Source: Escherichia coli (GTDB taxonomy: Bacteria; Pseudomonadota; Gammaproteobacteria; Enterobacterales; Enterobacteriaceae). From it: a DNA stretch of 23,487 bases. Made by a program: the position numbers and the translations under genes. Each line of letters opens with the position of its first letter. The stretch's first letter is position 1. The DNA lies in assembly GCF_003334315.1 (NCBI RefSeq), contig NZ_QOWR01000067.1; one strand, written 5' to 3'. The notes under the pieces were generated by a model, which saw only the letters and a program-made list of their open reading frames with translations, searched no databases and was not told the DNA's origin. Of this stretch, positions 15,870 to 18,134 are shown one piece after another.

Positions 15870-17132
15870 TTACTCCGCCACACTCTCGCGCAGCGGTTTC
15901 ACAGGAAAAACTTTTACCTGCTTAATCATATTGTCCTGTACGTCGAGAATATCGATATCGTACTCGCCAATACGCACGCGGGTGCCTGCGACAGGGATCT
16001 CTTCCAGTGCCTCAAGAATGACGCCATTAACCGTGCGGGCATCATCTTCCGGTAGATGCCAGTTAAAGGCTTTGTTGATTTCCCGCACGTTGGCGGTGCC
16101 ATCGATAATCACCGAACCGTCGTTTTGCGGCGTGACCTCTTCGGCAAGTGTTGGCGACATCGACGTAGTGAAATCGCCGACAATCTCTTCCAGAATATCT
16201 TCAACCGTCACCAGCCCCTGAATGTCTCCATACTCGTTGACGACCAGGCCGACTTTCTTTTTGTTGCGCTGAAACTTTACCAACTGCGTGCTGAGCGGCG
16301 TACCTTCCGGCACAAAATAGATCTCGTCCGCGGCGCGCAGCATAGTTTCTTTGGTGAACTCTTTTTTCTCCGACATCAACCGCCAGGCTTCACGTACTCG
16401 CAGCATACTGATGGCGTCGTCCAGCGAATCACGGTAGAGCACGATGCGCCCGTGAGGTGAGTGGGAGAGTTGGCGCAGAATCGATTTCCAGTCATCGTTG
16501 ATATCAATACCGATAATTTCACTGCGCGGCACCATGATGTCATCAACGGTCATTTTTTCCAGATCGAGCACCGACAGCAGCATATCCTGATTGCGACGGG
16601 AAATTTGTGAGCGTGATTCGTGCACGATAGTGCGCAACTCTTCTTTGCTCAAAGAGCCGCTAACCACGATATCGGTTTTGATACCCATCATGCGCATCAG
16701 CATACGGGTGATAGCATTCAGCAACCAGACCAGCGGCATCATCAAAATTTGCAGCGGAGCCAGCAGAAAACTACTCGGATAAGCGACTTTTTCCGGGTAC
16801 AGCGCGGCAATGGTTTTCGGCAATACCTCAGCAAATACCAGTACGACAAAAGTCAGCACACCAGTCGCAATTGCCACGCCCGCATCGCCGTACAAACGCA
16901 TCCCAACAATAGTGCCGAGCGCGGAGGCAAGAATATTGACCAGGTTATTGCCGATTAACACCAGGCTTATCAGGCGGTCTGGCTTACGCAGCAATTTTTC
17001 GACGCGTTTGGCCGAGCGATTACCCTGTTTCGCCATATGTCGCAGACGATAGCGGTTGAGGGTCATCATTCCGGTTTCGGACCCGGAAAAATAGGCTGAA
17101 ATGACCACCATGATGATCAGAATAATGATCAA
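15870..17132 (-). CDS. yfjD: CNNM/CorC-family inner membrane protein (DUF21-CBS pair-CorC_HlyC), 420 aa; start codon uncertain
   Basis: Translation shows N-terminal transmembrane segments followed by CBS-type and CorC/HlyC-type regions. The track ORF begins at a TTG (17130..17132); an in-frame ATG lies at 17109..17111 with no good Shine-Dalgarno, and the frame is open further upstream. Confidence 0.85.
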   Translation of the reverse strand: MIIILIIMVVISAYFSGSETGMMTLNRYRLRHMAKQGNRSAKRVEKLLRKPDRLISLVLIGNNLVNILASALGTIVGMRLYGDAGVAIATGVLTFVVLVFAEVLPKTIAALYPEKVAYPSSFLLAPLQILMMPLVWLLNAITRMLMRMMGIKTDIVVSGSLSKEELRTIVHESRSQISRRNQDMLLSVLDLEKMTVDDIMVPRSEIIGIDINDDWKSILRQLSHSPHGRIVLYRDSLDDAISMLRVREAWRLMSEKKEFTKETMLRAADEIYFVPEGTPLSTQLVKFQRNKKKVGLVVNEYGDIQGLVTVEDILEEIVGDFTTSMSPTLAEEVTPQNDGSVIIDGTANVREINKAFNWHLPEDDARTVNGVILEALEEIPVAGTRVRIGEYDIDILDVQDNMIKQVKVFPVKPLRESVAE

Positions 17133-17176
17133 CGTAGTAGTAGAAATGTGTTCCAGGGGAAACTCCTTTTCTGGGT

Positions 17177-17968
17177 TTAGCTGATTAACTGCTGGACAAT
17201 TCGGCTGCCGAAGTAGGCCAGTGTCAGAATTACCGCGCCCGCAACGTTAAACCAGACGACGCGGCGTCCACGCCATCCTTCATGATAATGTCCCCACAGC
17301 AGCACAATATAGACAAACCACGCCACGATAGAGAGCACAGCCTTGTCGATATTTTCCATGCTAAATAAGTTGTGCATGTAGAACAGGCCAGTGCAAAGCG
17401 TGAGCGTTAGCAGCACCACGCCAATCTGCGTGATGTGGAACATTTTACGCTCGATACTCATTAATGGCGGCATTTCCTGGTTAAACGCCAGCTTCTTGTT
17501 CTTCAGTTGGTAATCAATCCACGCCAGTTGCAGCGCGTACAGGGCGGCGATAATTAGCGTGGCATAGGAAAAGAGCGATAAGCCAATGTGCACCAGCATC
17601 CCAGGCGTAGCTTCCAGATGGGTGATGTATTCATTGGGCATGAAGGTTGCCAGCGCCAGGTTGATAAGCGCAAAGGCATAGACAATGGGTAGCAGCAGCC
17701 AGCCACGATTGCGAGAAGCCACAATGGTCATTACCGTACAGATCATCAAACTGACCAATGAACCAACGTTCAGCAGGCTGAGGTTTTGTCCGCTATCACC
17801 GTCGGGCAGGATGCGGGCTTCCAGAGCGATTGCGTGGCAGACCAGCGCAATGACCGCAGAAATAATAGCCATGCGCCGCCAGCCGCCGTTTTTTTGCAGC
17901 AGACCGGGAACAATCAGCGCAAGACTGACGGAGTAGGCGACAAGCGCGAGCAGAGCAAAAACGGGCAT
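17177..17968 (-). CDS. ypjD: Inner membrane protein YpjD (cytochrome c assembly CcsA-like family), 263 aa from the second in-frame ATG
   Basis: Multi-pass hydrophobic translation (MPVFALLALVAYSVSLALIVPGLLQ...). The track ORF extends to an ATG at 18043 (288 aa); I prefer the ATG at 17968 from memory of the 263-aa annotation. Confidence 0.8.
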   Translation of the reverse strand: MPVFALLALVAYSVSLALIVPGLLQKNGGWRRMAIISAVIALVCHAIALEARILPDGDSGQNLSLLNVGSLVSLMICTVMTIVASRNRGWLLLPIVYAFALINLALATFMPNEYITHLEATPGMLVHIGLSLFSYATLIIAALYALQLAWIDYQLKNKKLAFNQEMPPLMSIERKMFHITQIGVVLLTLTLCTGLFYMHNLFSMENIDKAVLSIVAWFVYIVLLWGHYHEGWRGRRVVWFNVAGAVILTLAYFGSRIVQQLIS

Positions 17969-18134
17969 AGTGATGTCGACAGTTTGAGCAATAAGAAAGA
18001 GAAGCAGTATAGCGTCAGGTGAACGCTGCTCCAACCGTTGCATAACAACAAAGACGCCTTCATGTTATACTGCGGCAAAATACTGATGATGTGTCGCGAT
18101 TGCGGCCAACCGTTTCCACCCCAGGCGAGAGACA

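Follow-up and report, generated by a model that had tools for sequence, protein, structure and literature searches.

Initiation codons of yfjD (corB) and ypjD in Escherichia coli: evidence for a CTG start and for the second of two in-frame ATGs

At which codons does translation of yfjD (corB) and ypjD begin in Escherichia coli? The two genes were studied on a 23,487-nt stretch of E. coli DNA (contig NZ_QOWR01000067.1 of assembly GCF_003334315.1), referred to here as the window. The region in question is E. coli chromosome with the gene order grpE, yfjD and ypjD (minus strand), and ffh, rpsP, rimM, and trmD (plus strand). An earlier note, made from this sequence alone, had described alternative starts for both genes and had held that the N termini could not be fixed from sequence alone. 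This last claim proved wrong, since a comparison of 75 to 80 Enterobacteriaceae settles both starts. Conservation of the upstream codons among enterobacteria, which the note had named as a check, was analyzed and fixed the start of yfjD at CTG 17156 and that of ypjD at ATG 17968. The ambiguity was genuine as far as canonical codons in a single sequence are concerned; it can be resolved by RefSeq, by conservation, and by published experiments. We assign a probability of about 0.9 to the full explanation, in which these two codons are the starts of two genes of one operon.

All coordinates are window positions, and a window position w corresponds to position 2747790 + (18140 - w) of E. coli K-12 (NC_000913.3). 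Many complete E. coli genomes match positions 16900 to 18250 at 100% identity, and the region was found in 5,426 of the 5,426 genomes of the collection. Compared with K-12 MG1655, positions 15800 to 19496 were 99.8% identical without gaps, and both start regions (17100 to 17200 and 17900 to 18140) were identical to K-12. The start of yfjD was compared across the orthologous loci of 80 species of Enterobacteriaceae (one locus each), which were 87 to 100% identical over the first 219 residues. For ypjD, 75 loci with complete upstream sequence were used. The strength of a Shine-Dalgarno (SD) sequence was expressed as the free energy (ΔG) of its duplex with the anti-SD sequence at the 3' end of 16S rRNA, computed over the 20 nt upstream of a codon and compared with random 20-mers of the window.

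The initiation codon of yfjD

When read from a CTG at positions 17154 to 17156, the coding sequence of yfjD, a CNNM/CorB-type transporter gene, spans positions 15870 to 17156 on the minus strand. After the ypjD stop codon (TAA, 17179 to 17177), the sequence runs AAAGGAG, then TTTCCC as a 6-nt spacer, and then CTG GAA CAC. The AAGGAG read here (17163 to 17168, minus strand) equals the SD consensus and lies 6 nt before the CTG, within the 20-nt spacer that separates the two genes (17157 to 17176). The ΔG at the CTG site was -8.2 kcal/mol, which places it in the top 0.3% of random window 20-mers, while the closest canonical start codon, a TTG, is 30 nt away from this SD. The earlier note overlooked both the AAGGAG and the noncanonical start, though an SD of this strength points straight to the CTG. 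In RefSeq K-12 and in the PGAP-annotated strain CP53, yfjD begins on CTG 17156, giving a gene of 1,287 nt and a protein of 428 amino acids. The same start has been reported in EcoGene 3.0 (PMC3531124) as confirmed by start-codon mutagenesis and fusions, cited there as unpublished results, which makes yfjD the second confirmed CTG start of E. coli after hda.

The comparison among species is consistent with this assignment. At the position aligned to the CTG, 36 species carried CTG, 30 carried TTG, and 14 carried GTG, and ATG was found in none of the 80. At codon 1, the alternation of leucine and valine codons is thus confined to NTG, which is the pattern of a start codon and not that of an internal codon. 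Over codons 2 to 10, the entropy of first and second positions was approximately 0 and third positions varied, and no 3-base periodicity was seen upstream of codon 1. The residues from codon 2 onward (E-H-I-S-T-T-T-L) were each shared by 76 to 80 of the 80 species, and 69 of them carried an in-frame stop no more than 12 codons upstream of the start. A 62-nt segment surrounding the start was identical in 4,702 of 5,426 E. coli genomes. Two variants were inspected: one, from an O157:H7 strain, carried a 1-nt insertion (C) directly before the CTG, and the other carried a 9-nt duplication in the intergenic spacer. Both had kept the SD and the CTG, and their insertion and duplication indicate that the sequence upstream of the CTG is not coding. 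The encoded protein matched the NCBIfam equivalog NF008604 with 866.7 bits (cutoff, 475), residues 1 to 427 aligning with positions 1 to 427 of the 428 in the profile, and contained the domains PF01595 (CNNM/DUF21), PF00571 (CBS), and PF03471 (CorC_HlyC).

Older annotation placed the start at a TTG at positions 17130 to 17132 (minus strand), giving a protein of 420 amino acids. As the earlier note had observed, this TTG is the first canonical codon of the frame (15870 to 17132 in the list of open reading frames) and lacks an SD, and the frame does stay open upstream of it, through 39 codons (8 + 31) that include no ATG, GTG, or TTG. It is thus the first such codon after the upstream stop, and it opens the longest canonical open reading frame. 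Initiation there is nevertheless extremely unlikely. The TTG site had a ΔG of +2.4 kcal/mol, a value that 99.7% of random 20-mers of the window surpass in strength, and the aligned codon was CTG, CTC, CTT, or CTA in 71 of the 80 species, as would be found for an ordinary leucine codon, here codon 9 of yfjD. The eight codons that precede it conserve their amino acids through synonymous changes. Mutation of the TTG, moreover, was without effect on yfjD expression (EcoGene 3.0, PMC3531124).

A second candidate is the internal ATG at positions 17109 to 17111 (minus strand), codon 16 of yfjD, whose first position is also the left edge of the interval that the earlier note had marked. It would give a protein of 413 amino acids and could be the start wholly or in part. 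This ATG was invariant in the 80 species, products of 409 to 413 amino acids are common in automatic protein sets, in which it is a frequent pick of the gene callers (with products of 411 to 413 amino acids), and the 50%-identity cluster is represented by a protein that begins at Met16. We consider this start very unlikely all the same. It has no SD (ΔG, +0.6 kcal/mol), and codons 2 to 15 are under strong purifying selection at the amino acid level and are therefore translated. A start at Met16 would also cut the front off the first transmembrane helix, whereas NF008604 covers YfjD from residue 1.

The same locus is handled variably in public automatic protein sets. In such sets, E. coli-like YfjD appears either as an N-terminally truncated protein of 397 to 413 amino acids or as a protein of 640 amino acids. 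These miscalls arise because the callers concerned do not allow CTG as a start. At this locus, callers restricted to ATG, GTG, and TTG go astray, and an orphan SD of such strength is a useful clue to a noncanonical start.

The initiation codon, promoter, and leader of ypjD

The product of ypjD is an inner-membrane protein of the Cytochrom_C_asm (PF01578) family. Its longest open reading frame was listed as positions 17177 to 18043 (minus strand; 288 amino acids), and the pair of in-frame ATGs described by the earlier note is indeed present, at 18043 and 17968, 25 codons apart, giving 288 or 263 amino acids. In RefSeq, the gene is 792 nt long (17177 to 17968) and encodes the protein of 263 amino acids. 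Conservation agrees with RefSeq: the second ATG (17966 to 17968) was ATG in all 75 species, and conservation of the coding type began at this codon, continuing through P-V-F-A-L-L-A-L-V, with none upstream of it. PF01578 matched YpjD with an E value of 5.1e-48 over residues 61 to 286 of the 288-residue reading, which are residues 36 to 261 of the 263-residue protein. Against TIGR03144, the CcsB equivalog, the score was 35.9 bits, far under the cutoff of 187.6, and YpjD is thus not a bona fide CcsB.

The DNA between the two ATGs carries a promoter. A -10 hexamer, TATACT (18006 to 18011, minus strand), was present in 75 of 75 species at 35 to 41 nt before the second ATG. It is preceded, across a 17-nt spacer, by the -35-like hexamer TTGGAG (18029 to 18034, minus strand), which lies within the block ATGCAACGGTTGGAGC and kept the same spacing in 65 of the 75. 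SMRT-Cappable-seq (PMC6131387, Supplementary Data 2) reported an operon of b2611 and b4461 (ypjD-yfjD) with a transcription start site (TSS) at K-12 position 2747931 on the forward strand. This site corresponds to window position 17999, 7 nt downstream of TATACT and 31 nt upstream of ATG 17968. The arrangement TTGGAG, 17 nt, TATACT agrees with what is expected of a sigma-70 promoter, namely, a spacer of 16 to 18 nt and a TSS 5 to 9 nt downstream. This promoter was missed by a simple promoter scan, because its -35 element matches the consensus at only 3 of 6 positions; it was found by eye and is backed by conservation and by the published TSS. In the supplement text of the 2016 Cappable-seq study, no TSS was found near the locus.

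From this TSS, the mRNA of ypjD-yfjD has a 5' leader of 31 nt (17969 to 17999, minus strand) that is pyrimidine rich and carries no SD. The anti-SD ΔG of the leader was +0.4 kcal/mol in E. coli and averaged 0.04 over the 75 species, none of which has an SD there. A leaderless ypjD mRNA was considered and rejected, as the TSS lies 31 nt before ATG 17968. The pyrimidine-rich 5' end of the leader reads CTTCTCTTTCTT, and a semiconserved palindrome, TGTCGACA, stands right before the ATG.

The alternative start for ypjD, ATG 18043 (18041 to 18043, minus strand), would add an N-terminal extension of 25 residues. This ATG opens the longest frame and sits within a well-conserved block, and in 18 of the 75 species the 25-codon extension is open, in frame, and headed by ATG. 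The block in question, ATGCAACGGTTGGAGC (16 nt, at 18020 to 18043), holds both the unused ATG and TTGGAG and is near-invariant in most Enterobacteriaceae. According to the published TSS, however, transcription begins 44 nt past ATG 18043, so that this codon is absent from the mapped mRNA, and the -35 and -10 elements between the two ATGs are conserved as DNA and not as codons. An in-frame stop occurred 4 to 23 codons upstream of the second ATG in 52 of the 75 species (54 when up to 25 codons were counted), and the leader carries insertions and deletions that are not multiples of three; together, stops, insertions, and deletions break the extension in most species. Kluyvera and Pseudocitrobacter do not have the block that holds ATG 18043 and yet have kept TATACT. 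Furthermore, there is a single purine-rich stretch, at a distance of 15 nt from ATG 18043, and distant YpjD homologues are 253 to 268 amino acids long. Initiation at this codon is accordingly very improbable: ATG 18043 belongs to the promoter, ahead of the point where the transcript begins, and shares the reading frame by chance, and ATG 17968 is retained as the start of ypjD. A SELEX paper by Shimada and a paper on G-quadruplex transposon sequencing (Tn-seq) mention ypjD and say nothing on its start.

Several points weigh against the two starts proposed here. Neither ribosome-profiling nor N-terminal peptide data for YfjD or YpjD were found, and the TRAINSPOTTER N-terminomics supplements have no entry for yfjD, ypjD, or corB. 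For the mutagenesis of yfjD, EcoGene 3.0 cites nothing but unpublished results, and the TSS of ypjD comes from one data set, with a coordinate that may be one base off. Transcripts from further upstream are possible under other conditions, and minor initiation is possible at ATG 17111 of yfjD or, on rare read-through transcripts, at ATG 18043 of ypjD. Finally, ATG 17968 has no recognizable SD; we infer its selection from its place as the first AUG on the mRNA and from a leader that is unstructured and rich in pyrimidines and A.

The divergent gene ffh has a promoter (ATAACA, 18 nt, TATACT) that, together with its TSS, spans positions 18042 to 18077 on the plus strand. This promoter was predicted by the promoter scan, and the ffh TSS reported by SMRT-Cappable-seq (PMC6131387) at K-12 position 2747853 (reverse strand), which is window position 18077, fits it. 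The two divergent promoters share the same -10 element and the bases that follow it, TATACTGC. The two copies (18004 to 18013 and 18064 to 18073) form an imperfect 10-nt inverted repeat (gcagtatagc / gttatactgc), are 50 nt apart, and are both conserved across Enterobacteriaceae. Judging from this shared repeat, the ypjD and ffh units may have a property in common, such as growth-rate control. Kluyvera and Pseudocitrobacter have a different promoter module (TTGATA...) in place of the entire block ATGCAACGGTTGGAGC. Upstream of the -35 element, the conserved part of the block may serve to bind a regulator of ypjD or of ffh. A further ffh-rpsP transcript reported by SMRT-Cappable-seq (PMC6131387) begins at K-12 position 2748185 (reverse strand), or approximately window position 17745 (plus strand). 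This start is antisense within ypjD, approximately 390 nt upstream of the ffh ATG, and no convincing -10 element was seen there by eye.

Outside the two genes, a patch of variable sequence was noticed. It is a local hypervariable patch in the ffh-rpsP intergenic region: over 90 nt (19511 to 19600), identity to K-12 was only 90%, and 14 nt next to this stretch were unaligned, whereas the rest of the aligned portion of 15800 to 19600 was 99.8% identical. An Rfam scan of the whole window detected the transfer-messenger RNA gene ssrA (9975 to 10337, minus strand) and a tRNA gene (2129 to 2201, plus strand), both unrelated to the start question, and found no RNA family in the yfjD/ypjD region.

Covariation of the yfjD start codon and its SD

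Across the 80 species, the SD sequence differed with the start codon that it serves. Among the 36 species with a CTG start, 35 had a GGAG core, with a mean ΔG of -8.5 kcal/mol. Among the 44 with TTG or GTG, 43 had a GGA core that is not followed by G (the AAGGAA type), with a mean of approximately -6 kcal/mol. Only two species departed from this pairing of SD and codon, and they are neighbors on the gene tree, which was built by neighbor joining from 627 ungapped coding nucleotides. Parsimony on this tree gave approximately 8 switches between CTG and the canonical codons and 8 switches of SD class, co-distributed on the tree; the count is approximate, as the 627-nt tree is rough, and this point falls on the same side as the points against given above. 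In reporter assays described in a preprint by Hecht et al., CUG initiates at approximately 1 to 2% of the level of AUG, whereas GUG and UUG reach 10 to 100%. The covariation, a pattern read from aligned sequences, suggests that SD strength compensates for start-codon strength, toward a fixed level of expression, and the CTG codon probably keeps CorB synthesis low.

The absence of ATG was considered in the same light. Approximately 10 first-base changes were counted at the yfjD start codon, none of them to A. The probability of this outcome by chance is approximately (2/3)^10, or approximately 0.02, a crude estimate that assumes equal odds for the bases. That no ATG arose in approximately 10 changes supports selection for a weak start. 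In a stronger version of this reading, the corB start would be held at a non-AUG codon by selection with the SD co-evolving, and the weak codon would be a regulatory device. Synthesis of the putative Mg2+ exporter might, for example, sense the fidelity of initiation through initiation factor 3 (IF3) and free Mg2+. This example is speculation, and we regard the stronger version as unlikely.

Deeper relatives were reached through 50%-identity representatives on metagenomic contigs, which were approximately 43 to 50% identical, as the direct listing of homologues gave only sequences of at least 86% identity. In these distant gammaproteobacterial loci, the arrangement of ffh divergent from ypjD, followed by corB, was kept. 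The corB start was TTG in three loci, namely, L085 (whose AAGGAA SD keeps the same spacing), L086 (one base past the ypjD stop), and L089; it was GTG in L090 and ATG in L088, where corB overlaps ypjD by 4 nt. Four of the five distant loci with the same synteny thus have TTG or GTG as the corB start and not ATG. In L087, a corB homologue without an upstream ypjD starts with ATG. The distant YpjD proteins were 253 to 268 amino acids long and started with ATG in the four loci whose ypjD start lies on the contig; in L086, ypjD is cut by the contig end. These starts indicate that the non-AUG preference of corB downstream of ypjD is old and that a YpjD of 263 amino acids is the family norm.

The distance between the two genes was also compared. 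The ypjD-yfjD spacer was 10 to 30 nt in most species and 75 to 159 nt in seven species with a CTG start. The seven are L010 to L013, L017, and L020 (Raoultella and relatives), together with L025, and they carry an insert between ypjD and yfjD. These seven CTG-start species with gaps of 75 to 159 nt make it unlikely that CTG works because of an obligatory, tight translational coupling. In E. coli, with its 20-nt gap, yfjD may be tightly coupled to ypjD, and the use of CTG does not require this.

From these observations, expression of the operon most likely proceeds as follows. A single sigma-70-type promoter (-35 TTGGAG, -10 TATACT) starts transcription at approximately 17999 and yields a bicistronic ypjD-yfjD mRNA from the minus strand. 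YpjD (263 amino acids) is translated from ATG 17968, the first AUG, on a 31-nt leader without an SD. The AAGGAG places the 30S subunit on CTG 17156, which is read as formylmethionine to begin the 428-residue YfjD/CorB. The weak codon and the strong SD would together set a low level of CorB, and relatives with TTG or GTG have a weaker SD (AAGGAA), a pattern that suggests compensation of one signal by the other.

Relation to known starts and significance

Like hda, the first chromosomal CTG-start gene of E. coli K-12, yfjD has a CTG start that older annotation missed. Unlike hda, yfjD encodes a protein of a different family and comes second in an operon, 20 nt past the ypjD stop, and its confirmation is on record in print solely through a mention of unpublished results. 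A second likeness is to infC and pcnB, the E. coli genes with AUU starts, since the start of yfjD is a near-cognate codon of the same weak class. In infC and pcnB, the weak AUU starts set or autoregulate expression via discrimination by IF3. By analogy, the near-cognate start of yfjD plausibly keeps expression low and sensitive to initiation fidelity. Unlike those two genes, yfjD uses CUG, which alternates with UUG and GUG in relatives, and we know of no regulatory loop for it. As for the proteins, YfjD belongs to the CNNM/CorB family of Mg2+ transporters (NF008604), while YpjD matches the Cytochrom_C_asm (CcsA/CcmC-like) family and is not CcsB.

Much of this was on record. The CTG start of yfjD is already published and stands in the current RefSeq, as a member of a very small class (hda and yfjD). 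The start of ypjD is the existing RefSeq annotation, supported here by the published TSS and by conservation. The ambiguity is therefore one of annotation, and its resolution was already available. Two observations on yfjD may be undescribed: its SD covaries with its start codon, and ATG is missing from the aligned position in all 80 Enterobacteriaceae. Compensation between start codon and SD is a general idea in start-codon evolution, and yfjD fits it as a single-gene case with several independent switches in one family.

The biological gain is small, in that the analysis backs one of very few CTG starts of E. coli. It also provides an example, within one family, of an SD that tracks the start codon, which suggests that the level of CorB is under stabilizing selection.

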